Below are positions 1-54,968 of a stretch of DNA of 54,968 bases, in pieces. The notes under the pieces are model-generated. The model made no database searches. It was not told where the DNA came from and saw only the letters and a list, made by a program, of their open reading frames with translations. How positions within the stretch are numbered: the first letter of the stretch is position 1; each line of letters begins with the position of its first letter. The translations under genes were made by a program, and so were the position numbers. Source of the stretch: a virus (taxonomy: Duplodnaviria; Caudoviricetes); the IMG/VR virus record IMGVR_UViG_3300026097_000029, positions 1 to 54,968 of that record; one strand, given 5' to 3'.

Positions 1-135
1 TTAAAACAAGAAAATGAATATTTACAAAAAGAAATTAATAATTTAAGAAACCCTAACAAAAACGAAAAAACAATAGAAGATATAAAGCAAATGAATTTAC
101 TTTCGTTAATAAAATGGAAGTTAACTAAAAGTTAG
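1..135 (+). CDS. 3' end of a hypothetical protein truncated by the window edge
   Basis: Frame 1 is open from base 1 (LKQENEYLQKEINN...KWKLTKS) to TAG at 133-135. Confidence 0.55.
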   Translation, partial: LKQENEYLQKEINNLRNPNKNEKTIEDIKQMNLLSLIKWKLTKS

Positions 136-197
136 TTTATTTGTGTTATACATTGTTGTGCATAGTAGCGGATTATTAACGAAAAAAAATTAATAGA

Positions 198-680
198 ATG
201 AAAGACAAAAAAGTATTAGATGTGTGTTGTGGACCAAAAGGAATGTGGTTCGATAAACACGATGAAAGGGCATTGTATTTAGACAAGCGTAGAGAAACGC
301 ACATTGATACATATCCTTGCGGAACAAAAACAAATATAATTGACCCTGATATTATAGGTGATTTTACGGATATTAAACAACCTGCCAATTCCTTTTGGCA
401 CGTGGTTTTTGACCCACCACATATTAAGCAAAACAATACAAGCCAAATAACAAAGAAGTACGGAAGTTTACAAGGAGATTGGCGTGAGATGTTAAAACAA
501 GGATTTAAAGAATGTTTTAGAGTGCTAAAGCCAAATGGTACACTAATATTTAAATGGAATGATTGTAGGTTTCCTGTAAAAGAAATACTTGCTTTAACAG
601 ACCAAAAACCACTTTACGGACATAAAAGCGGCAAGAAAATGGGAACGCATTGGATATGTTTTATAAAAGACGAAGCGTAG
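198..680 (+). CDS. SAM-dependent (DNA) methyltransferase-like protein
   Basis: VLDVCCG SAM-binding motif, FDPPH catalytic-type motif, ECFRVLKPNGTLIFKW. Confidence 0.8.
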   Translation: MKDKKVLDVCCGPKGMWFDKHDERALYLDKRRETHIDTYPCGTKTNIIDPDIIGDFTDIKQPANSFWHVVFDPPHIKQNNTSQITKKYGSLQGDWREMLKQGFKECFRVLKPNGTLIFKWNDCRFPVKEILALTDQKPLYGHKSGKKMGTHWICFIKDEA

Positions 681-691
681 CTATTATGCAC

Positions 692-758
692 AACATTTCT
701 GCGATATGAAACGTTGCCTAGTGGGACTGAGTAAATGCAATGTTTTATATTGCGTGTT
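692..758 (+). repeat. attC-like hairpin (AAC...GTT)
   Basis: AAC-atttct-GCGATATGAAACGTTGC...GCAATGTTTTATATTGC-gt-GTT; 17-bp stem with 3 G.T pairs. Confidence 0.85.
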
Positions 759-794
759 GGTTGACGATAGTGAACAGTATTAAAAAAATGAATT

Positions 795-1442
795 ATGTAC
801 AGAAGTAAAATAGAACTCCATAACGTTGATTGTTTGCCGTTTATGAAGCAATGCGTGGATAAACAATTTGACCTAGCAATAGTAGACCCACCTTATGGTA
901 TTGCACGCGCAGGACAAACAGAAACCTTTACAAAAAATCCTAAACATAAGCGCAAAGCACACGATCAAAAAAACTGGGATAATGCAATACCTAGCCAAGA
1001 GTATTTTGATGAGCTAGAACGTATAAGTAAGAATCAAATTGTTTGGGGTGCGAATTATTTTGTTGCCCATTTAAAACACGGAACAATGGGTTGGGTTGTT
1101 TGGGATAAAGGACAACACGGATTAAGTATGAGCGATTGTGAATTGGCTTACAGTAGCTTTAATAGAGCAACACGAATACTGACGTTTAATAGATGTCTAA
1201 TAGCTCAAAAAGGTGGAAGTATACACCCAACCCAAAAGCCTGTAGAGTTATATAGGCACTTACTTAATAAATATGCAGAAAAGGGCAACAAAATATTTGA
1301 TTCGCACTTGGGAAGTGGAAGCATTGCCATTGCTTGTGATGACTTAGGTTTTGATTTAGTAGCTACTGAAATTGATAAAGACTACTTTGAAAAGGCAAAC
1401 AAAAGGATAGACCAACATAGAAGGCAACAAACCCTTTTTTAA
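795..1442 (+). CDS. DNA N6-adenine/N4-cytosine methyltransferase (beta class)
   Basis: IVDPPY, HPTQKPVELY and FDSHLGSGS motifs. Confidence 0.9.
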   Translation: MYRSKIELHNVDCLPFMKQCVDKQFDLAIVDPPYGIARAGQTETFTKNPKHKRKAHDQKNWDNAIPSQEYFDELERISKNQIVWGANYFVAHLKHGTMGWVVWDKGQHGLSMSDCELAYSSFNRATRILTFNRCLIAQKGGSIHPTQKPVELYRHLLNKYAEKGNKIFDSHLGSGSIAIACDDLGFDLVATEIDKDYFEKANKRIDQHRRQQTLF

Positions 1443-1500
1443 TATTGCAACCAACACCGAATAACAGAACCTTACAAATTAAATTTAACAAACTTAAGCA

Positions 1501-1807: not shown

Positions 1808-4800
1808 TTATCTGTTTAAAAAATCTCTAGCATACTCGTAGTTATAATTAAAATCTCCTGTCTTAAATCCTTGAATTAACTCGTTGTATTTGCTTATAGT
1901 TTGTTTGTTTAAAACTTTAGCTCTCATTAATTGATTTAAGATTTCTTTATTGCTTTTATCTTTAAAATCTCCACCAAATATATTATACAACATAAACGCT
2001 CGTTCATTAGCATTCATGTTTTTAAGCTTGTAAACAACAAAAGGATATTGTTTTTTCTCTAGCTGTTTTTCAAGTTTACTAATCATTTTTTTTGTTTCTT
2101 CCGCATTGTCTCCTGCTTGTAATATTATTTCATCTACAATATCTTTAGGCATAGCATCGTTCTTAGCAAACTCGTCTATTAACTTATTATAGTTAAAATC
2201 TTTTATAGCTTTTTGTTGTGCCATTTTAGCTAACTCTTGCTTTTGGTCTGATGTTAGGTTTACTGAAGATGAATACTTGCTAGTTTTTGAAAAAACTCTA
2301 CCTGTAAACATTTTTTTAATATTATCTGCCATTTCTTTCTTTTCTCTACCTTCTTCTCCGCCCATTAACGCATCAGCAGTTCCGTAAGTTAAAGATATAT
2401 AAGGATTGCTTCTAGGAGATGTTACTATAGCTTCTACCGCTGCTTTAATTCTAGCGGGAGATTCTGTTGTCTGCCAACCTATCTCTTTGTAAAAACCTTC
2501 TACATAATCGCTTTCAAAACCCTCAGCTTCTTTAGGAACATACCCTTGCATATAAGACAAAGGCTGGTCTCTATAAAAGTCATAACCTAAAGAGTAAGAC
2601 ATAATAGAGTTTATGGCTGGTACTCTAGTTAAATTACCTGTTAGTGTTAAATCAAAAGGCAATACATTTGTCTCCATTGTAAACTTTAATTCTTCTAGAG
2701 TCTTGTCTTGGTATCCTTCTATCTCATACATTTCAGCCATTTTGTTAGCTATTATATTTTCAGTCAACGAAAGTAATGGTGTTATCTCGTGTGATTTTGC
2801 TAATCTAAACGACTCAAACTCTCCTTCTTTACTTATATTGTAATAAAAGTGCATATAGTTAGAGTTTTGATACTTACTTTGCTTTTGTCTAGCTTTTAAG
2901 TATCGCTCAACACCCGTTAATCCTTTATACTCTTCAGGTAAATCATCATCATCTAAAGCACCTAGTAAAAACACATTCAAACCTATACGAAGACCAGAGA
3001 AAATAGCCGCTGCTTGAATTAATCTAAATGATGTAGCTAAAGGTCTTTCTTTTGCTTGCTCTGCTGCTACTCTAATACTTTGTGTTCCTGCGTTTAGATA
3101 GGATACTGCTGCGTCAATGTCTTTTAATATATAGCCACTTTGGTTAAAGTCTGGTGCAGATTTAGCTCTAGCTTCTGCAACCGCTTTTGTAAACATAGAC
3201 TCTCTTAGACCTTTGTCTAATTTCTCTAAATCTTTTATTTCATTTATATCCTTATATTTCTTAGGATTTTCTTTTTTTAGTTTTTTAATTTCGTTGTTTA
3301 ATGTTCTTGTAAACACTCCTAATCTAAAACCTATCTCGCCATATTCTTGCAAATCTCCAATAAAATCAAATATCTTATTTTTAAACACAAAGTCTTTAGC
3401 TCTCTTGGAGTCTGCTAATCCAAATGTAGCAAATTTAAAGAAGTTATCTAATACTTTTTTGTTTAATGATTCTACGAAGGTGTTTCGCTTTACACGACCT
3501 TGTGTATGTAGAAAGTTCATCATCAAACCGTATTCTACTGCGTTTTTGTAGATGTAAGATTGTTCAGTTCCTTTTCTTATTTCTTTAATACCACCAACTA
3601 AATCTTTAGCTATTTGACCCAAAGACTTTAGTAAAAAATTACTGTATTGACTACTAAAAACAGATATAAAAGAAAAATCTCTTGGAGTGTTAGTTATAAA
3701 AAAGGTAGGGTTATTACCTGTAGCAAAACTTTGTAATATAGCTTTGCCAGATATTAAGGCAATAGCTTCTCTCATATTTGGTGTAGATATTATCCCGTTT
3801 AATTGACCTGCATAACTATCATAAAAATCAGGATTCATACTAAAAGACTTTCTTACACCATCTTCATAATAGTACACTTTTCTAAATCCATCAGGAACTT
3901 GTTTTTCTATACTGACTTGCTCAAACAATTTATCTAAAGCTTCTAATTCTCTTAACTCTCTTCTAGTTATAGATTCGCTTCCTTTTTTTTCTTGTAAAGA
4001 TTTTTGTCTTTCTTTAGCATCTAGTAAAGATGTAAAGGTTGCTCTATTTACTCTGTTAGCAGATATAGATTTACTTCGTGCATTAATATACATACTAATA
4101 AGAAGCATACTATCTGTAATTAAAGATTCACTACTACCTTGATTTATAGTTTTTATAGGAGATTCAGCCAACCCGCTATTGTCTGATGCTTTACTATAGT
4201 CAAACTCTCCATCTAGGTTTTCTATATGCTGTAAGAATTTACGTTGTACGTAGTCGTATCCTTTAAAAGAATCGTACATATCTTTATCTATAAAGCCTTC
4301 TTCGTACATTTCTTTTAGCATGTCTTGATAGTAAGAGAAAAACTCTTCTGCTCTGTCGTTTAGTTTGTTAAACTTCTTGTCTCCTAATTCTTTTTTAAGA
4401 TTATCTAACGCAGCTCTAGCATCATCTTTTGTCAAGTTACCAGGATTAATAACGTCTGATTTTCCTTGGGTTTTTCTTTGGGATTCTAAAGAGATTAATC
4501 TTTTAGCTTGTATTATCCAGTCCAATATTTCAACCTCATCATTATTTAGCTTGTAATAAATTTTTCTATAAATGTTTTTGAATATCTCTGCTGCACGACC
4601 TGAAGAGCCATTGTCTGCAATCATGTAATCAACTAAAGATGTATTTTTTACCTTTAGTTTTGCTTTTTTAAATACTGTTTTAGCAAATGAAGTTCTATCT
4701 AGGAATTTTTCTTTAAATCCTTTAACTATGTTTTTCAAAGTAAATCTAGAGCTAGAAAGTTTTTCTCTATCTTTTTTTGCTTTATTCATAACGTTTTGAA

Positions 4801-21221: not shown

Positions 21222-23839
21222 CGTTTTCTTTTAATATTCATTGTTATTTTCTTTTTCTCTTTCTCGACTGTGTACTTATTTCTATTTACAGCCATTAAAG
21301 CTAAACCACTACTAATTGTAGCATCAAATTTAGTCCTTTTATTTATATCAAACTTCATCCAATCTTTTAGAGTGTCTACGAAATACATATCTCCGTAATC
21401 GTTTGTTTCTAAGTTGTAGCCTATATGTGTATTTACATAGCTTTCAATAGCAGAAGAGTGCATAAGCTTCATGTCTAAACTAGAGTTTGGTACACCACCT
21501 AATTCTATTTCGGTAGGAGATAGCTTACTTGTTGGCTTATCAAATCGAGTTATAGAGTAGTTTCTGTAACCCCTGTTTTTAAAGTGATACAGCAGTCTAG
21601 GTTTGTTGTTCTCTATAAGTATAGGCATACCATAAAAAACACAAGCCATTAAAACATCTTCAAAAAACTGTTCTGCTGTTTTTGGTCTAGCAATGTATTC
21701 TAAGAAAAAATGATTACTAGGTACGTCTCCTATAGAAAACCTAGTTACTCCATGCAACGCACCTTTTGAGCCACGCTTAGAGTCTGAACTACTTGTTCCG
21801 TATTTAGTTACAGAGTCTACTGTTCCTGATATATCGTAGCTATCACAACCAAACGCACCCATAGTGTCGTTTAAAGGTGCTTTACTGTAACCACCATAAC
21901 CCATTCTAGTTTCATACTGATTCTGCATACTTTTTGGCGGTATCCACGTAACTTTAAAGTTACCTTTTTCGCTTTCATTCCAAACTACATTGGTATCAGG
22001 TATTCCGTTTTCCCAAGAGAAGTTTCCTTGTTTTACTTTTTTAGCAAAGTCTGCATCTTCGCAATATTGTATTTGCTCTTGTATTCTCTCTAAGCTAAAT
22101 AAACAAGTTTCTGCTTCGTCTCTTAAAGCGTCTTTTAACTTCATTGGGTAAGCTCTTAACTCTTCGTTATATGCTACTTCGTTTTGCTTTCTCTTTTGCT
22201 TTCTAATAGCTTCTAAGTATTGTACAGCACCTATTTTTTTAATACTGCCTTGTACATTTTCAAAGAAACCACCGTCAGGTACTACTTTATGGCACTTACC
22301 ATATTTATCTGTAAACTCAGTCATGTTTTCGTGAGCAGGTAAAAAGTAAGAGTATAAACCTGTAGGTGTTCGTTCTGTTACTTTGTCTCTTTTGTTTATG
22401 TTTGAGCCACTTAATATCTCTATAAATTCCGCACCACCTTTTTCGTGAGCAGCTACAGTTGAGCCTAAAAAAGCTTTACCTACAATTTTACCACCTTCAT
22501 CGAAAGTTGGTGATATCTCACCCCAATGTTCTAAGTAGTTGTGTGGTTTTTTCCACTTGCTGGCTTCGTCTCCTAGATACCTGTACATTTTCTGACCGTC
22601 ATAGCTATCGTTTTTAGTAGGCTGATAATCTATTATAGTGTTTAAGTAATCGTCTGTATTTGTGTCTTTCTTTTTTTTAGATGCTTTAGTGTTGTCTGAA
22701 GGTTTAGCAAACTCTATTAGTTTAGGACTATCTATTTTACCCTTAACAACAGGTATAAAGAAAAAAGGTAAGTTTCTTAATGCGTAAGTTAGTTTTATGT
22801 ATGCTTTCTTAGCATCGTTGTCTGACTTAGATGTAATACCAAAGTTAGCGTTTTTAGTAGATGTAGCTTCATTTAACATTCTAAACACTTTTTCATAAGT
22901 AAAACCAGTACGCCTAGACTTTACGAATATCTGACCTAAGCATCGTTTATCTAAAACACAAGCTTCTGTATGGTAAAACATATTAAGTTGTGCGTACCTA
23001 AAGTCCATATAACCGCCATCGTCTGCCATTTTACACCACTGTAAGGCAAAGTAATGACTTCCTGTTAAGTACACAGGCTCTCCGTTATTCATAAACCAAA
23101 CACCTTCTCGTCTACGCTTAAACTCTTGCATTATATACTCGTAGTAAGCGTCTTGATTTTCTTGTGTTAAGTTTTTAGGCATAGGTGTTCTTTCCCAAAA
23201 CTGATGCCTTTGTCTTTTATCTGAAAACAATATATCCTTTTTATCAGGTACTTTAGGTAAAGCTATTCTTAAGTTGTCTAAGGTTATTATTTCTCCTATT
23301 GTACCTTTAGGGCATATTATAATTGCTTTGTTTTGTGTGTCGTACCAAGACTTGTGATAGTTTTTCTCAGGATAAAATTCTTGATTAGCGAACTTTTCAG
23401 GGAAACCTATTTTAAACTCTTTATCTTCTAACTGGTAGTTTTCTGCTTCTAGTTGAAGTCTTAACTCTATTAAGCTTGCATCTATTTCGTTTACCGCTTC
23501 TAATAAAAATACTTTACCTTGAGATGCTAAGTAATGTTTTTCTTCGGGTATCTCGCTATAATCAATTTCCATAGCAAAATAACTTCTTAATGTATTAAGT
23601 GCTACATCTCCTGCAACAACTAATCGCTCTACGTAATGTTTAAGTTTTTCGGGATTGGGTTGGTTGTTTGAGTTATCCCATTTATTAATCATAACTTTAG
23701 CGTACTTAAAGCTATCTACTTTACTACGCATTAAGTTTTTGATTTTTTCTGGCTCAATTTCAGACAAGTCTATTTGATACTCTAATCCTTGAATTATAGT
23801 ATTAATTGCACTTTCTATATCTTTACTTAACCCTATCAT
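21218..23839 (-). CDS. terL: Terminase large subunit with extended N-terminus
   Basis: KSRRTGFT (Walker A-like), YLGDEASKW (Walker B), GCDSYD and FDATISSGLA nuclease motifs. Confidence 0.9.
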   Translation of the reverse strand: MIGLSKDIESAINTIIQGLEYQIDLSEIEPEKIKNLMRSKVDSFKYAKVMINKWDNSNNQPNPEKLKHYVERLVVAGDVALNTLRSYFAMEIDYSEIPEEKHYLASQGKVFLLEAVNEIDASLIELRLQLEAENYQLEDKEFKIGFPEKFANQEFYPEKNYHKSWYDTQNKAIIICPKGTIGEIITLDNLRIALPKVPDKKDILFSDKRQRHQFWERTPMPKNLTQENQDAYYEYIMQEFKRRREGVWFMNNGEPVYLTGSHYFALQWCKMADDGGYMDFRYAQLNMFYHTEACVLDKRCLGQIFVKSRRTGFTYEKVFRMLNEATSTKNANFGITSKSDNDAKKAYIKLTYALRNLPFFFIPVVKGKIDSPKLIEFAKPSDNTKASKKKKDTNTDDYLNTIIDYQPTKNDSYDGQKMYRYLGDEASKWKKPHNYLEHWGEISPTFDEGGKIVGKAFLGSTVAAHEKGGAEFIEILSGSNINKRDKVTERTPTGLYSYFLPAHENMTEFTDKYGKCHKVVPDGGFFENVQGSIKKIGAVQYLEAIRKQKRKQNEVAYNEELRAYPMKLKDALRDEAETCLFSLERIQEQIQYCEDADFAKKVKQGNFSWENGIPDTNVVWNESEKGNFKVTWIPPKSMQNQYETRMGYGGYSKAPLNDTMGAFGCDSYDISGTVDSVTKYGTSSSDSKRGSKGALHGVTRFSIGDVPSNHFFLEYIARPKTAEQFFEDVLMACVFYGMPILIENNKPRLLYHFKNRGYRNYSITRFDKPTSKLSPTEIELGGVPNSSLDMKLMHSSAIESYVNTHIGYNLETNDYGDMYFVDTLKDWMKFDINKRTKFDATISSGLALMAVNRNKYTVEKEKKKITMNIKRKR

Positions 23840-24390
23840 ACTTTAGCACATACATCTCTTGTGTCTATCTTAATAAACTCTTTACCTAAAACATTAAAGT
23901 AATAGTTTCTGTAATCTTCGTAAACTATAGTGTCTCCTTTTTTTAAACCTAATTCGTTTTCTTGCTTATATGAATTAACAGCTACAATGCCTACGTTTTC
24001 GTTTAAGTGTTTATGAGAAAACTCATCATTGTTAGGCACTCGTTCAAGAAATAAATAAGGGTCAATAGAAATCATTTCTCCGTTTTTAATAACCATATAA
24101 GGGTCTTGGGTAAAGTATAAGTCATCAAAAATATGCTTAATACCATTGTTCATTTCCCCCATTTGTGTACGACCTACTCTAAATGTATTGTGGTGTACTA
24201 CAATTAAATCTCCCTTTTCAATTATCCCTTTGTAGTCTTGTGGCGTTTCAACTACTTCTGCAACTCTGTTAGTATGTTCGTGGTTGTCTATATTATCGTT
24301 AACAATAATGTCTAAACCATCAATATCCATAGTCGTTCTATACTTGTCGCCTTTGTGTGGTTTAATTAAAAAGTAAAATGGACTTTTCAT
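23836..24390 (-). CDS. GroES-like protein (probably two tandem domains)
   Basis: FLIKP...AEVVETP...IEKGDLIVVH and FLERV...VGIVAV...LKKGDTIVY patterns. Confidence 0.55.
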   Translation of the reverse strand: MKSPFYFLIKPHKGDKYRTTMDIDGLDIIVNDNIDNHEHTNRVAEVVETPQDYKGIIEKGDLIVVHHNTFRVGRTQMGEMNNGIKHIFDDLYFTQDPYMVIKNGEMISIDPYLFLERVPNNDEFSHKHLNENVGIVAVNSYKQENELGLKKGDTIVYEDYRNYYFNVLGKEFIKIDTRDVCAKV

Positions 24391-36516: not shown

Positions 36517-38100
36517 ATGAGTAACATTAAAGAAGTTCGTTTCGGCTTAGATGCTAGGTCTGAAATTTTAAAAGGAGTAAACACAGTAGCAGATGCTGTA
36601 AGCTCAACTATGGGTGCAAAGGGTAGAAACGTGTTAATTGAAACACAAGGCGGTTTACCTAAAATAACAAAAGACGGAGTTACCGTATCCAAAAATATTT
36701 TTTTAGAAAGCCCATTAGAATCTTTAGGTGCAGAAATTATTAAACAAGCTGCTGAGAAAACCGTAGAAGATTGTGGGGATAGTACAACTACTACTGTTGT
36801 ATTAGCTAGGGAGCTAATGAATTTAGCAGAAGTAGAAGTAGAGAAAGGTGCACACCCTATCTTACTTAAAGAAGGTATAAGTGATGCGGTTAAACAAGTT
36901 ACAAATCATTTAAAAAGCAAAGCATTAAGGCTTAAAAAAAGAGACTACAATAATGTAGCTAGAATATCTGCAAACAACGATAAAGAATTAGGAGACACAA
37001 TAGCTAAAGCATTTAAGTTGGCAGGAAAAAATGGCGTGGTTACTTACGAGCGTTCTATGGACGAAATTACATCTGTAAAGAAAAGCAATGGTTTAAAGAT
37101 TGACAGGGGTTTACTTAATCAGTACATGGTTACTGATGAGAAAACCAACCGAATGGAATTAGAGAATCCTTACATTTTTGTTTGTAATAAAAAAATAGAA
37201 TCATTCCAACAAATTATCCCTTTGTTTAAAAAATCTAAACAAGAAGATAAATGGATTTTGATTATAGGCGAAATGGAGCGAAGTGTAGCTAACCTATTTA
37301 CTGCTAACATTATAAAACACAAACTAAAAGTAAGATTTGTAGATGCTCCGTCTTTTGGGAGTAAACGTAATGCTTTAATGGAAGATATAGCTACTGCCAC
37401 AGGCTCTATCTTAGTAAAGAATGAAGGTACAGACAATATTGAATCTGTGTGTTTAGATTACTTAGGAACTGCAAAAGGATTTACTTGTTCGGACAAAGAA
37501 TCTTTTTTAGATGTAGACAAAGAAAGATATCAAGACGCTATTGATTTAAAAGTTAACGAGTTATTAGAATTAAAAAAGAACACTAAAAAAAGCATAGCAT
37601 CTAAGTTTTTAGATGAGCGTATTGCTAAGTTAAGCTGTTCTATTGCTACCATACAAGTAGGTGCTATATCTGATGTGGAGTTAGAAGAAAAAATAGACAG
37701 AGTAGACGATGCAGTTAACGCAACTCAATCGGCAATAGAAGAAGGTGTTTTAGTTGGTGGTGGTTTAGCGTTGTTTAATGCTAGCTACAAAGTTAGTTAT
37801 AGTAATGATAATCATAAAGATTATAAGTTAGGGTTTATGATAACCATAAACGCAATCAGGAAACCCATAAAGCAAATACTTACAAATGCAGGTGCTAATG
37901 TAGACGATGTTATTTCTGAAATAGAAAACAATCAAGACGAAAACATAGGATACGATGTGCTATCTAACAAAATGGTAAATATGCTTAAAGCAGGTATTAT
38001 TGACCCACATAAAGTAATACGATGTGCATTGCAAAACGCAGCAAGTGTTTCGCAAACATTTTTATTAACAGACACATCAATTAATATAAAAAGAGCGTAA
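36517..38100 (+). CDS. groEL: Chaperonin GroEL (phage-encoded)
   Basis: GVNTVADAVSSTMGAKGRNV, ITKDGVTV, GDSTTT, EEGVLVGGG, GIIDP. Confidence 0.95.
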   Translation: MSNIKEVRFGLDARSEILKGVNTVADAVSSTMGAKGRNVLIETQGGLPKITKDGVTVSKNIFLESPLESLGAEIIKQAAEKTVEDCGDSTTTTVVLARELMNLAEVEVEKGAHPILLKEGISDAVKQVTNHLKSKALRLKKRDYNNVARISANNDKELGDTIAKAFKLAGKNGVVTYERSMDEITSVKKSNGLKIDRGLLNQYMVTDEKTNRMELENPYIFVCNKKIESFQQIIPLFKKSKQEDKWILIIGEMERSVANLFTANIIKHKLKVRFVDAPSFGSKRNALMEDIATATGSILVKNEGTDNIESVCLDYLGTAKGFTCSDKESFLDVDKERYQDAIDLKVNELLELKKNTKKSIASKFLDERIAKLSCSIATIQVGAISDVELEEKIDRVDDAVNATQSAIEEGVLVGGGLALFNASYKVSYSNDNHKDYKLGFMITINAIRKPIKQILTNAGANVDDVISEIENNQDENIGYDVLSNKMVNMLKAGIIDPHKVIRCALQNAASVSQTFLLTDTSINIKRA

Positions 38101-38102
38101 TT

Positions 38103-38357
38103 ATGAAAGCAATGTTTCAAAAAGTGATTGTTGAAAAAATAGGAGAAGAAACAACAAACGATAGCGATTTTATTGTGTCTGACTATAAAAAAGAAAAGTT
38201 TTGTAAAGGTAAGGTGTTCTCGTCAGGCGATATGGCTACTGAGATACAAAAAGATGATATAGTTTGGTATGATAAAAACAGAGCATCAAATATAAATATA
38301 AATGGAAAAATGTTTGATGTTATGGATAAAATGAATATATTTGTAGTCGGTGATTGA
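38103..38357 (+). CDS. groES: Co-chaperonin GroES
   Basis: 84 aa immediately after groEL; KVIVEK...GKVFSSG...IQKDDIVWY pattern. Confidence 0.75.
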   Translation: MKAMFQKVIVEKIGEETTNDSDFIVSDYKKEKFCKGKVFSSGDMATEIQKDDIVWYDKNRASNININGKMFDVMDKMNIFVVGD

Positions 38358-45076: not shown

Positions 45077-46080
45077 TTAAATGCAACATGGTCTACTAGC
45101 ACACTATTATAGTATACAATGTGCTAGGGTAGCTTAGTGCATTTTTTGTTTTATTTGTTTATACATACCTTTTCTTTGTAAATAATCTTGTATTGAATAA
45201 ACATACACTTCTTAGTCTTATAAGTGGGATAGTTTTTAGTCAAATGAGTGGTATTTTTTAGTCTCTTGAGTGGGCTATACCCCCAACCTACGTTATCCAC
45301 ATCTTTCCCAAAACTTTTCTCATTCGCATAGGGGGGTGCAATTCTGAGCACATAGTGTCGAAACTTTTTAGCTTTTTTGTCCTGGACTTTTTTCAATCAA
45401 CAGAACCAATATAAAACTAATACGATTGTACTCCTGTATATTTTACGTTGATGCTAAATGTTTTTTTAGGTGAGACTAAATATTTTTTTAGTGGGGAATA
45501 AATAACCAAAAAAAAATCTTTACATAAAACCACAAACGAAATTCAGCGTCAATTTTTAACTATTGTATTAAATATGTAAGTATATATATATATTATTTAT
45601 ACGTATTTAATGTATGTATGTATTAAGGATTTAACTGTTTTAATATATATATGCTAAATAGGTTAAATATGTATGTATTTGATTTTTAGTGTATTAATAC
45701 AATTTAGATTAATTAATTTGTTAAAACTTTGTTAAATAAGATAGGTTTATTTGGTTGTAATTTGAGTTTGTTTGTATGTTTGCAATGTAAACAAAAACGA
45801 AAATACTTCACTTGTTTATGAGTTCCTTGAAATACTTACTAGATTAATTAATAGATTACATTTATAATAGTGTTGCATTATATTGCTTCCGTATTTATAC
45901 GAACAAACATTTATAAAATACTTTGATTAGTTAGTTTAGTAACTCGAAAATAAAACTAATTAAAACTATGCTTTTATATTTAAAGTAGCTGAGAACGTTT
46001 GAAAGCTAAAAAATATACAAATAGCTGAGTATGTTTCGCGATATACTCAGTATCTAAATATTATTAACCTTAAATAAAAT
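45077..46080. other. AT-rich non-coding region (possible origin or genome end, with early promoter)
   Basis: No credible long ORF; hairpins at ~45094-45131 and ~46024-46049; TATGTTTG at 45775-45782. Confidence 0.45.
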
Positions 46081-49455: not shown

Positions 49456-49633
49456 CTTTAATAAAGAACGAGTAGTGTGGCATAACAGCAAATAATATGG
49501 GTAGTGGCGATAAAAAGGGTTAACAGTATCGTATGCAAACCAATAACCCCGAAAAACACGGTGAAAGTCCAGTTGTTAGGCATACTTAGCCATTACCTAT
49601 ATTTATTATTGAATGTCTTTTTTAATTGCATAT

Positions 49634-49756
49634 AACGTTGAGTATATGGCAAGTAGCCGAGATAAAGCACAAACGATGCAAAAAGTAAACAAATTTAATA
49701 ACAGGCAGATGGTTCCAAAAAGACCCGTAACACGGCTATTTGCTATATACAGTGTT
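49634..49756 (+). repeat. attC-like hairpin
   Basis: GTATATGGCAAGTAGCCG (49642-49659) / CGGCTATTTGCTATATAC (49733-49750). Confidence 0.85.
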
Positions 49757-49773
49757 ATGTGGCGTTTTTAATT

Positions 49774-50016
49774 ATGGAAGTAGTAGATTTTAGTAACAGA
49801 TTATTTCACGATATACCAACACAGGACAATCCTGCTTACGGGAGTGAAGAGTGTATAATGATTGTAAAGGATAGCCAAAGACAAGCTTTATTTGCTGTAC
49901 TACATATTGAACCCGTAATAGACCCAATGGAAGACGAATCTGTTACTAAAATATGTGAGGTGTATAAACTTAATAATGCTATTAAGATTGCTAAGTGGTT
50001 CGCAAATGCCACATAA
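49774..50016 (+). CDS. Cassette-borne hypothetical protein
   Basis: ATG 49774; the TAA stop lies inside the terminal TAAC. Confidence 0.65.
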   Translation: MEVVDFSNRLFHDIPTQDNPAYGSEECIMIVKDSQRQALFAVLHIEPVIDPMEDESVTKICEVYKLNNAIKIAKWFANAT

Positions 50017-50061
50017 CATCTCGGTGCTATGAAATCGTTTTAATGTTTTATAGCACGTGTT
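50015..50061 (+). repeat. Minimal attC-like hairpin
   Basis: GTGCTATGAAA-TCGTTTTAATG-TTTTATAGCAC. Confidence 0.85.
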
Positions 50062-50163
50062 ACCCACTGGTGCGACTTTAAAGAGCAAACTTTTATTTAA
50101 GAACTGAAACTTTTTCTTTTCTTTTTTGAGCGTTGGCAAATATTAATTTGAAAAATTAAAATT

Positions 50164-50970
50164 ATGGAACAAATACAATTACACAAAGGATATTGCGAAG
50201 ATTACTTTACCCAAATACACGATAAAAGCGTAGATATGGTTCTTTGTGATTTACCTTACGGAACAACAGATTGTAAATGGGATAGTCAAATAGACTTGAC
50301 TTTTCTATTTAGCGAATATTACAGAGTGTTAAAAAAGAACGGTGCAATAGTGTTATTCGCTTCACAGCCCTTTACATCTACTTTGGTATGTGAACACGTT
50401 AAATACTTCAAGCACGAGTGGATATGGAAGAAAAACGCAGGAAGTAATTTTGGAACTGTAAAATACCAACCATTTAAAGAACACGAAAGCATACTTGTAT
50501 TTAGTAATGGAGGTGGGAAGGTTTGTTACAATCCTATAATGGAAGAACGTGCTGAAAGTGGTAAAGCGAGAGTAAAGACCAAGGTTAATTATAATACAAG
50601 TGCAGAAGTTTACGGAAGTGGTGGATTAATAGGCGATAAAGGAATAAGTAGTAATAGACCTGATTTAAGATACCCAAGTAGTGTACAGAAATTTAATAGA
50701 GAGCGAGGGTTACACCCAACACAAAAACCACTTGACTTGATAGAGTACTTAATTAAAACTTACTCTAACGAAGGCGAATTGATACTTGATAATACAATGG
50801 GAAGCGGTACTACTGGTGTTGGTTGTGTAAATACAAATAGACGATTTATAGGTATTGAGTTAGAAGATAAGTATTTTTCTATTGCAGAAGAACGAGTAAA
50901 AAAAGCGTGGGAAGAAAAAAGAAAAGAAAAAGATTTACAAGCACAAACTTTATTTGGAACACAGAAGTAA
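50164..50970 (+). CDS. DNA N6-adenine/N4-cytosine methyltransferase (beta class)
   Basis: CDLPYG, HPTQKPLDL, LDNTMGSGTTG. Confidence 0.9.
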   Translation: MEQIQLHKGYCEDYFTQIHDKSVDMVLCDLPYGTTDCKWDSQIDLTFLFSEYYRVLKKNGAIVLFASQPFTSTLVCEHVKYFKHEWIWKKNAGSNFGTVKYQPFKEHESILVFSNGGGKVCYNPIMEERAESGKARVKTKVNYNTSAEVYGSGGLIGDKGISSNRPDLRYPSSVQKFNRERGLHPTQKPLDLIEYLIKTYSNEGELILDNTMGSGTTGVGCVNTNRRFIGIELEDKYFSIAEERVKKAWEEKRKEKDLQAQTLFGTQK

Positions 50971-50982
50971 GCACTTGTTGGT

Positions 50983-51216
50983 AACACTATGGTTATATGA
51001 GTAGTTTATTTACGGATTTAAAAATAGAAATATGAAAACAGTTTTAATACATTATAAAAAATGGGTAGAAGCACCGCACCCAATGTTAGACGGTGAATTT
51101 ATTAAATGTAGCCAAGTGGTCGAAGTATTAAAGCTGACTGACCTAAATGATATGTTTAAAAATATAACTAAGATTGAAATACTAAGCGAGTAAATGAATT
51201 ACTTATATGACGTGTT
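50983..51216 (+). repeat. attC-like hairpin with an ORF in its loop
   Basis: 22-bp arms 50992-51013 / 51190-51211 with four G.T pairs. Confidence 0.85.
51032..51193 (+). CDS. 53-aa hypothetical protein inside a hairpin loop
   Basis: Read manually: MKTVLIHYKKWVEAPHP...KIEILSE; stop falls in the right arm. Confidence 0.6.
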   Translation: MKTVLIHYKKWVEAPHPMLDGEFIKCSQVVEVLKLTDLNDMFKNITKIEILSE

Positions 51217-51253
51217 GTGTGTAGTACGGGCAAATAAGCAAAAACTTTGAATT

Positions 51254-51802
51254 ATGAAATTAGATTTAATTACAAACAAAGCAGAAAAAACAACTGCACG
51301 AAATGAAAATGATGAGTTCTATACTCCAAATTATGCAATAGAGCCTTTGTTAAAATATTTAAAACCTAATAGTTATGTATGGTGTCCTTTTGATTTGGCG
51401 AAAAGTAACTTTGTAAAACTATTAGTTGCAAATGGGCATAAGGTTTTAAATACGCACATCGAAAACGGTTTTGACTTTTTTGAATATGAGCCACCAAGTG
51501 AAATTGATTACATAATAAGTAATCCGCCTTACTCACTAAAACATGAAGTATTTAGCAAACTGTTTGAATTAGGAAAACCATTTGCAATGCTTGTAGGTGT
51601 TGTTGGATTGTTTGAAAGCCAAAAAAGATTTACAATGTTTGCGGACAATGATTTTGAAATAATGTATTTTGATAAGCGAGTAAGTTACTTTAAGGATTAC
51701 GCAGACGTAAAGCCAAAACTTAACCCACCGTTTTCGAGTGTATTTTTAACAAAGGATATACTACCTAAACAAGTTGTTTTTGAAAGGATAACTAAAAAGT
51801 AG
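51254..51802 (+). CDS. Phage adenine methyltransferase-like protein
   Basis: DEFYTP, WCPFD, DFF, ISNPPYS motifs. Confidence 0.8.
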   Translation: MKLDLITNKAEKTTARNENDEFYTPNYAIEPLLKYLKPNSYVWCPFDLAKSNFVKLLVANGHKVLNTHIENGFDFFEYEPPSEIDYIISNPPYSLKHEVFSKLFELGKPFAMLVGVVGLFESQKRFTMFADNDFEIMYFDKRVSYFKDYADVKPKLNPPFSSVFLTKDILPKQVVFERITKK

Positions 51803-51812
51803 TATTACTCAC

Positions 51813-51898
51813 AACGGTAGGTATATGGTTAGTGCGCCTACCACAAACGATTGAATTAAGCACTAACATAACTTGGCGCATTAACTATATACATTGTT
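51813..51898 (+). repeat. attC-like hairpin
   Basis: GTATATGGTTAGTGCGCC / GGCGCATTAACTATATAC. Confidence 0.85.
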
Positions 51899-51920
51899 GT
51901 GTGCCGTTAATTTTAAGGAT

Positions 51921-52184
51921 ATGTTGAATATAGAAGCGGAAGGTTTTGTATTTAAGTATGAAGAAAAAGGCAATCATAACAAAGCCTACACAAAGCCGTA
52001 CACAAATCACTCAAGAGGGTATTCGGATAGAATGATTGATGTTATTTATAATGACAAAAACAATTGGGTATTAATTTGCCAAGGAGATGATGAAACCCCT
52101 TGGGGTGATTGGGAAACAATGTTTGCTGGACAAATACAAAACCAACAAGATTTTAAAAAAGTGCTTGAAATGGTCATCGTTTAA
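51921..52184 (+). CDS. Cassette-borne hypothetical protein
   Basis: ATG 51921; stop within the terminal repeat TTAATGGCACACAAC. Confidence 0.65.
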   Translation: MLNIEAEGFVFKYEEKGNHNKAYTKPYTNHSRGYSDRMIDVIYNDKNNWVLICQGDDETPWGDWETMFAGQIQNQQDFKKVLEMVIV

Positions 52185-52192
52185 TGGCACAC

Positions 52193-52315
52193 AACGGCTC
52201 AGTATAAAAAATCGTAGCGGATAGATACCGCTTAAATGTCAAATTATAAATAACTTAATAAAATGGAACAAACATCGAATAACAGAAACCCCCGCTATGT
52301 TTTTTATACATTGTT
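52193..52315 (+). repeat. attC-like hairpin
   Basis: GTATAAAAAATCGTAGCGG / CCGCTATGTTTTTTATAC. Confidence 0.85.
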
Positions 52316-52463
52316 GGCGGTAGTGCTTTTAATTACTGCCTGTTCGGGTGATAGCGAAAGTAGCTCACAATTTTCTGAATGGCTTAAACAACCGATAACA
52401 GAAATGAGCATATTTGAATTGATATTGGTTGTAGGTTTTGTTGGACTGCTTACACGGTCTTAG
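52263..52463 (+). CDS. Small putative lipoprotein reading through the site
   Basis: Hydrophobic stretch ending in lipobox-like ITAC; C-terminal TM helix. Confidence 0.55.
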   Translation: MEQTSNNRNPRYVFYTLLAVVLLITACSGDSESSSQFSEWLKQPITEMSIFELILVVGFVGLLTRS

Positions 52464-52473
52464 CATTACCGCC

Positions 52474-52586
52474 AACGTAATTGTATATGGTGCGTTGCAT
52501 CACAAAATTTAATTAATAAAAATAAAGATAATGGAAGTAGAAGAACGATATAAAAAACCACAAGGCAATGCACTATATACATTGTT
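52474..52586 (+). repeat. attC-like hairpin
   Basis: GTATATGGTGCGTTGC / GCAATGCACTATATAC. Confidence 0.85.
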
Positions 52587-52740
52587 AGCAGCAGTTAAAC
52601 TTGCTTATGGGCAATACAAACTTGATGTGGACTACGTAAAAAATAAAAGTAATATATGGGAAGGGAAGCCATATAGTTGGGGATTAACTCATTGGGCAAT
52701 AGCAAAACATAGGTTCTATTGGTTTGTCATTAAACGCTAA
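52531..52740 (+). CDS. Small hypothetical protein reading through the site
   Basis: Starts in the hairpin loop; ALYTLLAAV is encoded by the arm and GTT junction. Confidence 0.55.
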   Translation: MEVEERYKKPQGNALYTLLAAVKLAYGQYKLDVDYVKNKSNIWEGKPYSWGLTHWAIAKHRFYWFVIKR

Positions 52741-52748
52741 TTGCTGCT

Positions 52749-52805
52749 AACGGACGAGTATATGCGAAGTGCTGACGATAGGAAGCATTGCGTATATACA
52801 TTGTT
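52749..52805 (+). repeat. attC-like hairpin
   Basis: GTATATGCGAAGTGCT / AGCATTGCGTATATAC. Confidence 0.85.
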
Positions 52806-52841
52806 AGGTGCAGTACGGTATTAATATAACAAAACTAAAAT

Positions 52842-53606
52842 ATGAAACAAACAGAATTATTCTTATTTGACAAAGTAGTGAACATTGACGGAGATGTAGC
52901 GAAATTCAAAAACCGAGAGATAAAAGCAAAAGAAATCTTTACTATACGTGAGATTGACAAGAAAATAGCTTACGCATTTATTAAACAATACCACTACTTA
53001 AAAGATGCTAAGTTCTTTGCAAAATATTCTTATGGACTTTATATTGATAATGTACTAGTTGGCTGCTCTACTTTTAGCAACCCACAAGGTATAAGTGCAA
53101 TGAAAAGTTGGTTTGGATTACCTAATAGCGACCAAAGTGTATTAGAACTTAGCAGACTGTGTATGTTACCTAAACTTAATGGTACAAACGCAACAAGCTA
53201 TTTACTTGGCAATAGTATGAAGATGCTAAAACAAAAGGAAGTTAAGGCTGTAATTACATTAGCTGATGATAGTAGGCACGTTGGAAGTATTTACCAAGTT
53301 TGCAATTTTAAATACTATGGCTTAACTGATAAAAAAACTGATTTCTTTTGTGCTGATGGTAGAGTGAACCCAAGAGGCAAAACAAAGGATTTAGAAGGTG
53401 TTTGGCTACCAAGAACACAAAAGCATAGATACGCTTTTTTATTGGATAAGAAAATGAATGTTTTGCTGAGTGAGAGTGAACGACCTACACTTGAAGATAC
53501 AAGCGAATATGATTGCTGTAACGGAACTAATAAGGTTTTTGATAAGCGATTTAATAAGCACTACACTTGCCCAAAATGCACAGGTGTAATTGAAGAACTA
53601 ATGTAG
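52842..53606 (+). CDS. Mom-like (GNAT-fold) DNA modification protein
   Basis: QYHY, LELSRL, LADDSRHVGSIYQVCNFKYYG, KHRY. Confidence 0.75.
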   Translation: MKQTELFLFDKVVNIDGDVAKFKNREIKAKEIFTIREIDKKIAYAFIKQYHYLKDAKFFAKYSYGLYIDNVLVGCSTFSNPQGISAMKSWFGLPNSDQSVLELSRLCMLPKLNGTNATSYLLGNSMKMLKQKEVKAVITLADDSRHVGSIYQVCNFKYYGLTDKKTDFFCADGRVNPRGKTKDLEGVWLPRTQKHRYAFLLDKKMNVLLSESERPTLEDTSEYDCCNGTNKVFDKRFNKHYTCPKCTGVIEELM

Positions 53607-53616
53607 TATTGCACCT

Positions 53617-53806
53617 AACTGGTCGGTGATAACGCTAGTTGCGATGGATTAATAAACTAAAAATAAAAAAAATGGATATAGATAAAATAGTAGATAGCAA
53701 AGTGATAACAATGACTAATTTAAGCGGTAAAAAATCAAAAGTGCTATTTCTTAAAAACGAAACTGAAATAGAAGCATTTAAAGAGCAATTAGCGTTATTA
53801 CGTGTT
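53617..53806 (+). repeat. attC-like hairpin
   Basis: GTGATAACGCTAGTTGC / GCAATTAGCGTTATTAC. Confidence 0.85.
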
Positions 53807-53917
53807 AGTTGCCAAAGGGAACAGTTAAAGGCGTTCGGTGAAATTATAGCACAAAAAATGCATAATGGAGAAGAATTCAATTTAACAAAAGAAGTAGAAA
53901 ACTTTATTAGCCTTTAA
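53672..53917 (+). CDS. Hypothetical protein reading through the site
   Basis: ATG 53672 in the loop; QLALLRVSC is encoded by the arm and junction. Confidence 0.55.
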   Translation: MDIDKIVDSKVITMTNLSGKKSKVLFLKNETEIEAFKEQLALLRVSCQREQLKAFGEIIAQKMHNGEEFNLTKEVENFISL

Positions 53918-53925
53918 TTGCAACT

Positions 53926-54829
53926 AACGTATTGGTATATGGTTAGTGCCGTGTAAATAGCACAGACTTTTAAATTAATAAAAGAAGTAATAATTAAAAT
54001 ATTTTTTATGAGCGTGGGCAAAAAATATAAAGTAGTTGAAGTAACTTTAAATGATATAGAAGAATGGCTATTGTATAAGCACTATGCCAAAAGAAAATGC
54101 AATGTAATGTTTGCTTATGCTTTAGTTGATAATAATGAAATTATTGGTGTTTGTACTTTAGGTATGCCACCTACTCCATTTTTTAGTAAATTGTTTGATA
54201 AAGGGACTTACTTAGAATTAAACAGACTAATAACAAATGATGGTCTACCTAAAAATACACTTTCTTTTTTTGTCGCAAATATTTTAAATAAGATAGGTGA
54301 TTATGTGGTTGTTTCTTATTCTGACCCAAATAACGGACATAATGGATATATTTATCAAGCTACTAATTGGATTTATACTGGTGCAGGTAGGGTAAACCAA
54401 AAAGACAAAAGAGGTGTAAATAAGTTTTTTTACAATGGTAAAGAATACCACGAAAGGCATATACCAGAAACAATGTCAAGATTAGGATTTAATATAGATA
54501 ATGATAAAACAAAAAACGAAAATTGGATAAATAACGGTGGTGAGATAGTACCACAAAAAAGAAAACATAGGTATTTTTATATTTGCGGTAATAAAAGGTT
54601 TGTAAAAAAGAACAAGAAAATAATAGAAAATTATTTTGACATTTACAATTACCCAAAAGAAGAGAATACAAACTATGATGCAAGTTATATTGTAAAAAAC
54701 AAATATATAAAACCTAAATTGTTTTGATAAAAACAAAAGAGCGTGGGCAAAAAAATATTTTAATTATGGACAAACAGACACAAATTATTGAATTAAGCAC
54801 GGACTTAGGCATTAACTATATGCCGTGTT
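53926..54829 (+). repeat. attC-like hairpin split by a nested gene insertion
   Basis: GGTATATGGTTAGTGCC (53934-53950) / GGCATTAACTATATGCC (54808-54824). Confidence 0.8.
54008..54727 (+). CDS. Mom-like (GNAT-fold) DNA modification protein
   Basis: KHYAKR, LELNRL, SYSDPNNGHNGYIYQATNWIYTG, KHRY. Confidence 0.8.
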   Translation: MSVGKKYKVVEVTLNDIEEWLLYKHYAKRKCNVMFAYALVDNNEIIGVCTLGMPPTPFFSKLFDKGTYLELNRLITNDGLPKNTLSFFVANILNKIGDYVVVSYSDPNNGHNGYIYQATNWIYTGAGRVNQKDKRGVNKFFYNGKEYHERHIPETMSRLGFNIDNDKTKNENWINNGGEIVPQKRKHRYFYICGNKRFVKKNKKIIENYFDIYNYPKEENTNYDASYIVKNKYIKPKLF

Positions 54830-54888
54830 GTAGCATCGTTTTAATGTGCTACAACACCGAATAACAAAACATTAAAAACATTAACCCT

Positions 54889-54968
54889 ATGAAACTACTT
54901 GAAAACGTTGCGGAAAGATATATTGAAAGTTCTAATAAAGGAGCAATAAATTATACAGATGAGCTTAA
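54889..54968 (+). CDS. 5' end of a hypothetical protein truncated by the window edge
   Basis: ATG 54889 after A-rich leader; open to the end of the window. Confidence 0.45.
   Translation, partial: MKLLENVAERYIESSNKGAINYTDEL

Follow-up and report, generated by a model that had tools for sequence, protein, structure and literature searches.

The IMG/VR virus record IMGVR_UViG_3300026097_000029 is a linear genome of 54,968 bases, which was analysed over its whole length and is referred to here as the window. On its + strand, from position 49485 to the record end and resuming from 1 to approximately 1475, lies a row of short genes separated by attC-like hairpins. The cargo of this array comprises three N6/N4 DNA methylases, one EcoRI-methylase-like gene, two Mom-like genes and several small open reading frames (ORFs). 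On balance, it is probably an integron-type cassette array without integrase (CALIN) in a Flavobacteriia-type phage, built on an attC family of chromosomal integrons in Flavobacteriaceae and relatives, in which the strand carrying G·T wobble pairs (hereafter W) would be the one that is folded and exchanged.

The phage carrying the array is of marine, Flavobacteriia type. Pfam and PHROG searches of the record identified portal, large terminase, virion proteins, a crAss-type muzzle domain protein, GroEL/GroES and thymidylate synthase, and CheckV estimates the genome to be 88% complete. No match to PF00589, the tyrosine recombinase family, was obtained in the 54,968 bases. Replication genes were likewise not recognised in any part of the record, which may therefore be less complete than this estimate.

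Hairpins and cassette ends

Read 5' to 3' on the + strand, each hairpin consists of AAC, an unpaired spacer of 5-6 nt, a stem opening with GTATAT, a variable loop, the returning stem closing with ATATAC, a 3-nt spacer (usually ATT) and GTT. Loop length ranges from 9 to more than 800 nt, and three loops contain an ORF. Directly 3' of GTT stand seven variable bases whose complement is found just before the next AAC, and each gene is thereby framed by cassette-specific inverted repeats of at least 10-15 bp, which are a hallmark of integron cassettes. The order of a phage cassette on the + strand is thus attC hairpin, GTT plus seven variable bases, anti-restriction or small gene, and the complement of the seven bases plus AAC. 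In 8 of the 11 cassettes of the window the flank stems extend to 14-23 bp, as expected of the hybrid R' complementarity of attC sites. Among consecutive pairs, at least five of the seven bases are identical in 24 of 43 from viruses and in 12 of 16 from bacteria.

A covariance model of the hairpin (R1), built from 25 diverse copies and run with filters off over the entire window, gave matches in the array only. With eight model matches plus weaker hairpins in 49485-54968 and 1-1475, the array corresponds to a CALIN, i.e. at least two nearby attC sites without an integrase. A complete integron, with intI and attI adjoining the array, was not found in the record and does occur in the bacterial relatives described below. 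The individual features are collected in Table 1.

Table 1 Features of the cassette array in the window. Bit scores refer to R1; WC, Watson-Crick pairs; aa, amino acids
Feature	Position	Strand	Details
H0, degenerate attC-like hairpin at 5' array edge	49485..49610	+	both wobble positions retained, GTT end decayed; 28.3 bits, E 0.0014
Ha, attC-like hairpin: AAC, 5-nt spacer, GTATATGG stem ... CTATATAC AGT GTT	49634..49756	+	66.4 bits; 19 WC, 2 G·T, 2 other
Cassette, 80-aa ORF 49774-50016	49754..50017	+	ends GTTATGTGGCG / GCCACATAAC complementary; no Pfam or PHROG match
Hb, short hairpin variant with ATCGTTTTAATG loop	50015..50061	+	10 WC, 1 G·T; loop motif also in P12002L and bacterial locus L093
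Cassette, N6/N4 DNA methyltransferase, ORF 50164-50970	50059..50985	+	PF01555, E 5.9e-31; flank stem present
Hc, hairpin with 53-aa ORF (51032-51193) in loop	50983..51216	+	18 WC, 4 G·T/T·G, 0 A·C
Cassette, EcoRI-methylase-like DNA methyltransferase, ORF 51254-51802	51214..51815	+	phrog_799, E 5.3e-28
Hd, top-scoring attC-like hairpin of the window	51813..51898	+	75.9 bits; 16 WC, 2 G·T
Cassette, 87-aa ORF 51921-52184	51896..52195	+	flank stem 15 bp, G·T at position 11
He, hairpin; start of downstream ORF 52263-52463 in loop	52193..52315	+	50.7 bits
Cassette body for 66-aa ORF 52263-52463	52313..52476	+	ORF list, stem alignment
Hf, hairpin; start of downstream ORF 52531-52740 in loop	52474..52586	+	57.2 bits; 15 WC, 2 G·T
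Hg, short-loop hairpin	52749..52805	+	46.4 bits; 13 WC, 2 G·T, 1 A·G
Cassette, Mom-like DNA modification protein, ORF 52842-53606	52803..53619	+	PF25680, E 2.2e-27
Hh, junction hairpin, minimal or decayed	53617..53640	+	2 WC by script
Cassette, 81-aa ORF 53672-53917	53638..53928	+	ORF list, PHROG search
Hi, hairpin with second Mom-like gene (54008-54727) in loop	53926..54829	+	14 WC, 3 G·T/T·G; PF25680, E 1.9e-24
Empty cassette GTTGTAGCA, loop TCGTTTTAATG, TGCTACAAC	54827..54855	+	perfect 9 bp stem
Hk 5' arm and start of ORF leaving the record	54853..54968	+	partner arm 137-157; presupposes joined record ends
ORF end from position 1 and Hk 3' arm (TTTATTTGTGTTATAC ATT GTT)	1..157	+	15.8 bits for 72-157
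Cassette, DNA methyltransferase, ORF 198-680	155..694	+	phrog_954, E 5.5e-62; flank stem 15 bp, G·T at position 11
Hl, hairpin	692..758	+	14 WC, 3 G·T; 22.1 bits
Cassette, N6/N4 DNA methyltransferase, ORF 795-1442, ending in GCAACCAAC	756..1455	+	PF01555, E 2.3e-16
Array end: AAC then ACCGAATAACAGAACC, without partner arm	1453..1475	+	identical words after AAC at 54853

Wobble pairs and folding of the two strands

Stem mismatches in the window are dominated by G·T pairs on the + strand. The stem alignments used for counting score matches alike on both strands and hence cannot favour G·T over A·C. For the 11 hairpin stems they yield 155 Watson-Crick pairs, 20 G·T/T·G, no A·C, seven other mismatches and three bulges, and for the 11 stems formed by cassette flanks 127 Watson-Crick and 11 G·T/T·G pairs, two A·C and five others, both A·C pairs lying in distal, weakly supported extensions. 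A preliminary description of the DNA, in which pairs had been counted by hand, gave about 33 G·T pairs, no A·C and about four other mismatches. The recount of 31 G·T/T·G over the whole window agrees with it apart from the two distal flank pairs; the more permissive alignments used here raise the other mismatches to 12. Likewise, the G at position 11 from GTT, reported to face a T in nine of eleven cassette stems, does so in eight by script and in nine when the last stem is taken from the AAC at 1453, which was read by eye.

The same hairpin recurs far beyond the window. An exact two-arm pattern matched 34 viral loci, 33 of them genuine, and in representative genomes 17 loci, of which five are genuine, all on contigs of metagenome-assembled genomes of about 4-38 kb. 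The covariance model extended this collection to 90 sites across the window and 40 loci; besides the window, 39 viral or metagenome-assembled loci are counted as carrying the family. At each locus all true matches lie on one strand, the sole opposite-strand row being the reverse of a hairpin already matched, and the sites are imperfect palindromes with AAC and GTT ends, stem support across copies and a tandem arrangement in one orientation, mapped in the window and in three bacterial arrays, as is characteristic of attC sites. Paired cells make up 97.6% of the stem against 72.1% in shuffles, with 0 of 500 shuffles reaching the observed value, and slid controls are paired to 27-56%. Compensatory change is seen in 14 of the 16 stem pairs, which have changed on both sides. 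Among the 82 distinct rows for which pair types were counted, the two fixed columns contain G·T 150 times, Watson-Crick pairs 11 times and A·C twice; with the two A·C cells, which belong to the reverse-strand match, left out, G·T occupies 150 of the 161 viral cells with letters. The 14 variable pairs, in turn, comprise 1089 Watson-Crick pairs, 17 G·T/T·G, no A·C and 29 others. The wobble observation is therefore confirmed and extends well past the window.

Folding of both strands, proposed in the preliminary description as a check, revealed a consistent difference in stability. Of 81 sites, 76 fold more stably as W than as its complement, or 75 of 80 once one chance match is dropped, whereas in flanking control segments of equal length the same strand is the more stable one in 51 of 80. 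The mean RNA fold energy is -22.95 kcal/mol for W and -17.54 kcal/mol for its complement, which folds worse by approximately 2 kcal/mol with DNA parameters and approximately 5 kcal/mol with RNA parameters; for Hd, the corresponding DNA energies are -12.9 and -9.8 kcal/mol.

It is very hard to credit that such a pattern arose without any selection on the fold, through strand-asymmetric mutation (e.g. C-to-T on an exposed strand) or common descent of G·T-bearing copies. Many copies are indeed closely related, one hairpin type dominates the viral set, and the array strand has a positive GC skew. Yet the base frequencies of the + strand of the array predict a ratio of G·T to A·C of only 1.05 : 1, the two wobble columns remain G·T amid freely covarying neighbours, the control segments lack the asymmetry, and the polarity of the bias follows the hairpin where the coding strand is reversed in bacteria (see below). 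A larger set without strand asymmetry, or a bias fully accounted for by composition, had been named in advance as findings that would overturn the idea of selection on one folded single strand; neither was encountered, and with compensatory change, two near-invariant G·T positions and a folding asymmetry beyond composition that idea has held up.

Some further search routes were less productive. A strand-neutral AAC...GTT scan of the entire window returned mostly chance long-range matches and was dropped in favour of family-specific detection, and loose motif searches allowing three mismatches performed near chance (73 found against 66 expected, and 220 against 163). Relatives sought via a neighbouring protein were not found, BLAST of one hairpin against cultured phages gave no match, and no Rfam family matches the hairpins. 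Flavobacterium phage mymlan6-1 was considered as a family member, its methylase cluster scoring at most 20 bits, and was not counted. Polaribacter phage P12002L, in contrast, was recovered by the model search as a carrier of the family.

Bacterial integrons and gene orientation

Sites of the same family are widespread in bacterial chromosomes. Model matches were obtained in 32 of 58 genomes of one Bacteroidia family. For the family to which a Tenacibaculum record belongs, 151 genomes were sampled and 105 gave matches, up to 20 in a single genome. In six bacterial clusters the arrays adjoin an IntI-like tyrosine recombinase of 382-405 amino acids in one shared geometry. With 233.5 bits this recombinase exceeds the NF040815 cut-off of 220, and with 223.6 bits it stays below the TIGR02249 cut-off of 265; by the latter, strict threshold an integron integrase is present in only 1 of 401 genomes of the class. 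Judged by the model matches, Flavobacteriaceae-type genomes appear commonly to contain chromosomal integrons whose IntI-like recombinase scores below TIGR02249. As for their cargo, the bacterial cassettes encode proteins sorted by the type IX secretion system, esterases and Fic. Genome G285, considered as a control integron, encodes a true TIGR02249 integrase but no recognisable cassette array and was not used.

In these integrons intI lies upstream of the cassette ORFs and is co-directional with them, both being antisense to W; in W coordinates intI is on the 3' side of the hairpins in all six clusters. ORFs beside bacterial sites are antisense to W in 47 cases, sense in three and ambiguous in nine. 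Nevertheless, both fixed wobbles are kept on W (30/33 and 32/33, or 62 of 66 cells), and W is the more stable strand in 29 of 33 sites compared to 11 of 33 flanking controls. Four arrays (L067, L099, L100 and L101) could be read at the junction of attI and first cassette: between intI and the first ORF the sense strand carries ...ACAA|GTT followed by seven bases, and in L067, L099 and L101 the seven bases plus AAC at the end of the first cassette complement the junction 7-mer, L100 having been read at the junction alone. In all four arrays no hairpin was found 5' of the first ORF. With the attI junction on the sense strand, the layout is that of classical integrons, whose top strand is sense, and W would correspond to the classical bottom strand in the bacterial integrons.

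Canonical attC sites fold and recombine on the bottom strand. In agreement with such a correspondence, eight classical attC sites from plasmids (class 1 and class 2 integrons) have seven G·T pairs on the bottom and two on the top strand. All eight carry 2-3 extra bases, always on the 5' arm of the top strand, i.e. the 3' arm of the bottom strand.

In the viral loci gene orientation is reversed. Here, flanking ORFs are sense to W in 94 cases, antisense in five and ambiguous in 41, with 8, 0 and 2 in the window alone, which bears out the earlier proposal that the folded strand in the phage is the sense strand. Several observations connect a hairpin to the gene that follows it. Where two sites of different loci have the same core, the downstream 7-mer alone is shared in 143 pairs and the upstream one alone in none, and BLAST comparison of cassette bodies yielded seven informative pairs (four plus three) in which the hairpin goes with its downstream ORF and one against. 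The two ORFs at 52263-52463 and 52531-52740 begin inside a hairpin loop. Moreover, Logan contig pieces from other metagenomes which cover the EcoRI-methylase-like cassette stop at 51815, at the end of an AAC, and at 51825. Over the Mom cassette (52803..53619), pieces from two other runs extend as far as the C of AAC at 53619, and one further piece has its first base at 52757, where the spacer ends, position 52758 being the start of the Hg L box. Judged by these arrangements, the phage hairpin seems to travel with the ORF downstream of it, and the unit on W would be the same in phages and bacteria: hairpin, GTT plus seven bases, payload, seven bases plus AA. Since the payload gene is sense to W in phages and antisense in bacteria, phage cassettes are inverted relative to host cassettes; the polarity of the sites themselves would be ordinary and the phage genes the flipped part. 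The preliminary description had placed the folded strand opposite to that of classical integrons, which is accurate relative to the genes only, the attI junction making the wobble strand the classical bottom strand.

The strong orientation bias in phages invites the alternative that mRNA is selected there, with G·U stem-loops acting in processing, stabilisation or translation control and the integron anatomy persisting as inherited baggage. Such a role is unlikely as the main explanation, even though near-total orientation bias requires some orientation-dependent selection, each phage transcript bears the more stable version of the hairpin, and hairpins stand 18-41 nt upstream of start codons. 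mRNA cannot explain why both wobbles are conserved in bacteria, where W is antisense, and the cassette-specific complementary ends together with the break-points at AAC indicate recombination of DNA. Nor do the hairpins match an Rfam family, and a structured RNA or terminator should show selection of the transcript-strand fold in every context, while the bacterial sites show the reverse. The mRNA option of the preliminary description thus loses ground. The wobble polarity follows the hairpin whichever strand is coding, for which reason selection would appear to act on folded single-stranded DNA rather than on mRNA or through a mutation bias.

If DNA is the folded species, the complement of W could in principle be the recombined strand, its fixed A·C mismatches being selected like extrahelical bases; phage cassettes would then be classical, with the textbook order of ORF and attC, and the bacterial arrays inverted. 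The attI junction G|TT on the sense strand and the lack of a hairpin before the first ORF in all four bacterial arrays speak against this assignment, as do the position of intI 3' of the hairpins, the linkage of the core to the downstream rather than the upstream 7-mer, the contig pieces terminating at AAC and the ORFs beginning within hairpin loops. The two mismatches, 5 bp apart, do resemble two extrahelical bases, and the bulged base and the longer spacer are on the 5' arm of W as on a classical top strand; all 17 transition-type mismatches at variable positions, however, are G·T on W, which is expected only if W stays helical. Altogether, recombination of the complement is improbable, and W is most likely the recombined strand.

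For the CALIN reading with W as the active strand, the following mechanism is envisaged. Two nearly invariant G·T pairs in the stem lie on W, as does a third that phages have where the R box is extended, at position 11. With G·T tolerated and A·C never accepted at the variable stem positions, only W folds as a continuous helix, the complement carrying A·C mismatches and folding worse. W would accordingly fold as single-stranded DNA and be exchanged at AA|C, as the equivalent of the classical bottom strand. Because the fixed wobbles keep W helical and leave A·C on the complement, they would discriminate between the strands, and may thus supply strand choice and/or recognition where extrahelical bases are mostly missing. 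The suggestion that they stand in for such bases, already made in the preliminary description, is plausible: the stem is free of bulged bases in 42 of 80 viral sites and in 29 of 33 bacterial ones, so that the extrahelical bases typical of attC are often absent. Finally, the phage presumably relies on a host IntI-like enzyme acting in trans. A tyrosine recombinase was found in 3 of 25 array-bearing viral records, one of which has a chance hairpin match only.

A number of points weigh against this picture. With the record 88% complete, an integrase could sit in the missing part. The crossover point and the active strand are deduced from the arrangement. The comparison with classical attC draws on eight sites, a small sample, and among same-core pairs 270 have homology at neither neighbour, and a single hairpin type accounts for most of the linkage. 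The bulged base that 38 of 80 viral sites do have is on the 5' arm of W, as is the longer spacer, and by bulge placement alone W looks like a top strand. Additionally, the spacer after AAC varies semi-independently of both neighbours (GGACGA occurs with three different hairpin cores), which a clean AA|C crossover does not predict. The experimentally recombined strand of site attC2 in P12002L, lastly, is called 'bottom' by that paper's own labelling and may be either W or its complement (Qi et al. 2023; PMC9892861).

Why phage genes should lie on W at all may have to do with a greater exposure of W as lagging-template or non-template DNA, with reverse cassettes being self-expressed, or with an added RNA role, each of which is possible. 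More tentatively, and with rather more doubt than conviction, these elements may be combined. Flavobacteriaceae-type integrons would have a strand-choice grammar of their own, in which two invariant G·T wobbles, in place of extrahelical bases, indicate to the integrase the strand to be folded and cut. Their phages would have access to a cassette pool of another kind, with attC first, the genes in reverse orientation and expression from the cassette itself. This pool would consist of methylases, Mom-like genes and small early genes and would be shuffled by the host integrase during infection, and cassette turnover would be highest with the folding strand as the coding, lagging-template or non-template strand.

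Related systems and further observations

Integrase-less attC clusters in virulent phages have been reported previously, including P12002L with its methylase cassettes (Qi et al. 2023; PMC9892861). In the parts of that work on P12002L, IntI1 recombined P12002L_attC2 as a single strand into attI1 but not P12002L_attC1, and for attC2 the 'bottom' strand was recombined, whereas the 'top' strand gave no recombinants. The array described here resembles the P12002L CALIN in its attC-type hairpin-bounded cassettes, the lack of an integrase, the DNA methyltransferase cargo and the hairpin family itself. It differs in comprising about 12 sites, compared to two predicted sites in 'divergent directions' in P12002L (PMC9892861). 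The passages on P12002L mention neither wobble pairs nor a relation to host integrons (PMC9892861), while here the family is traced to host integrons with inverted genes. In the library searched, the literature on wobble pairs in attC sites and on integrons of flavobacteria and Bacteroidetes contained no description of the bias or of this attC family. Integrase-less attC clusters in virulent phages are known; the wobble bias and the link of the phage attC family to host integrons with inverted genes appear to be new.

A classical attC site has AAC...GTT ends, an unpaired central spacer, an L-box stem and a variable loop, and the 5' end of a cassette complements its own R'' box. The family shares these ends, the spacer, the L-box stem, the loop and the R'' complementarity, and like the eight classical sites analysed it would fold as a single strand whose G·T pairs are mostly those of the bottom strand. 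In contrast to the 2-3 extrahelical bases of classical attC, however, it mostly has none and carries the two near-invariant wobbles instead. Its spacer is asymmetric (5-6 nt against 3 nt), its R-box complementarity spans 10-15 bp compared to 7 in classical attC, and in the phage arrays the ORF lies on the folding strand, unlike in classical attC cassettes.

Among chromosomal integrons, those with an 'inverted integrase', e.g. in Treponema denticola, have intI co-directional with the cassettes. The Flavobacteriaceae-type arrays are alike, intI preceding the cassette ORFs and reading in their direction, but their recombinase falls below the TIGR02249 cut-off and passes NF040815, the XerA/integron-integrase model. 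Another system for comparison are the PeSL (promoter-early stem-loop) modules of T4-type phages, reportedly described by Arbiol and colleagues in 2010. In PeSLs, small early phage genes lie between repeated stem-loops which are thought to aid modular shuffling by homologous or illegitimate recombination. Small phage genes bracketed by repeated stem-loop motifs are common to both, yet PeSLs are without AAC/GTT ends, cassette-specific complementary termini and a link to a host tyrosine recombinase; the array in the window has AAC/GTT and complementary ends.

The choice of strand by the integron integrase at classical near-palindromic sites is explained by extrahelical bases. A family with conserved wobbles that largely lacks these bases would provide a simple and mutable test of how strand choice is encoded. 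Phage arrays and the integrons of the host family use one site family with the genes flipped, and the flipped genes point to a phage-specific cassette pool with anti-restriction functions and to host integrases driving phage genome plasticity. Should the combined proposal outlined above be true, phage anti-defence repertoires would evolve via integron recombination. In practical terms, the orientation calls of current attC finders may be unreliable for such sites, the P12002L sites having been published as running in 'divergent directions' in the part of the paper concerned.

Beyond the cassettes of the window, a Pfam scan of 39 viral cassette ORFs left 37 without a family and identified one methylase and one ADP-ribosyltransferase domain of polyvalent proteins (PF18760, E 1.1e-18), the latter in viral cassette L030:3592-4188 (-). 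Viral cassette leaders 3' of GTT plus seven bases fall into two recurrent classes, ...GTACGG... and ...(C/T)GTTTAAATT / TTTTAAAATT, and an A/T-rich 3' half is common to viral hairpin loops. Promoter or translation signals may be embedded in these leaders and loops. A short hairpin variant of about 44-60 nt with the conserved loop CGTTTTAATG occurs in the window at 50015-50061 and 54827-54855, in P12002L (L052), in L017 and in the bacterial locus L093, and is hence common to phage and bacterial arrays. At 52263-52330 and 52531-52600, two cassette ORFs cross the conserved 3' arm of the hairpin in one frame, and both encode YTLLA; the first of them also has a lipoprotein-like signal, LLITAC.

Around the second Mom-like gene stand two kinds of repeat, one direct and 16 nt long (at 54010 and 54739), the other inverted, perfect and 18 nt long (53990-54007 / 54750-54767). 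A related word is also found 5' of the methylase gene at 50128 and another 5' of a P12002L methylase. These repeats look like either a common leader or the mark of another insertion mechanism, distinct from that of integrons.

Elsewhere in the genome, the phage encodes a GroEL (PF00118, E 1e-65) and two GroES-like proteins at 36517-38357 and 23836-24390. An ORF of 1928 amino acids at 1808-7594 (-) is without a Pfam or PHROG match. Between divergent gene blocks, a non-coding stretch at 45100-46050 with 27% G+C contains repeated TTTTTAGT-type words and AT-rich repeats and may be an origin or promoter region.

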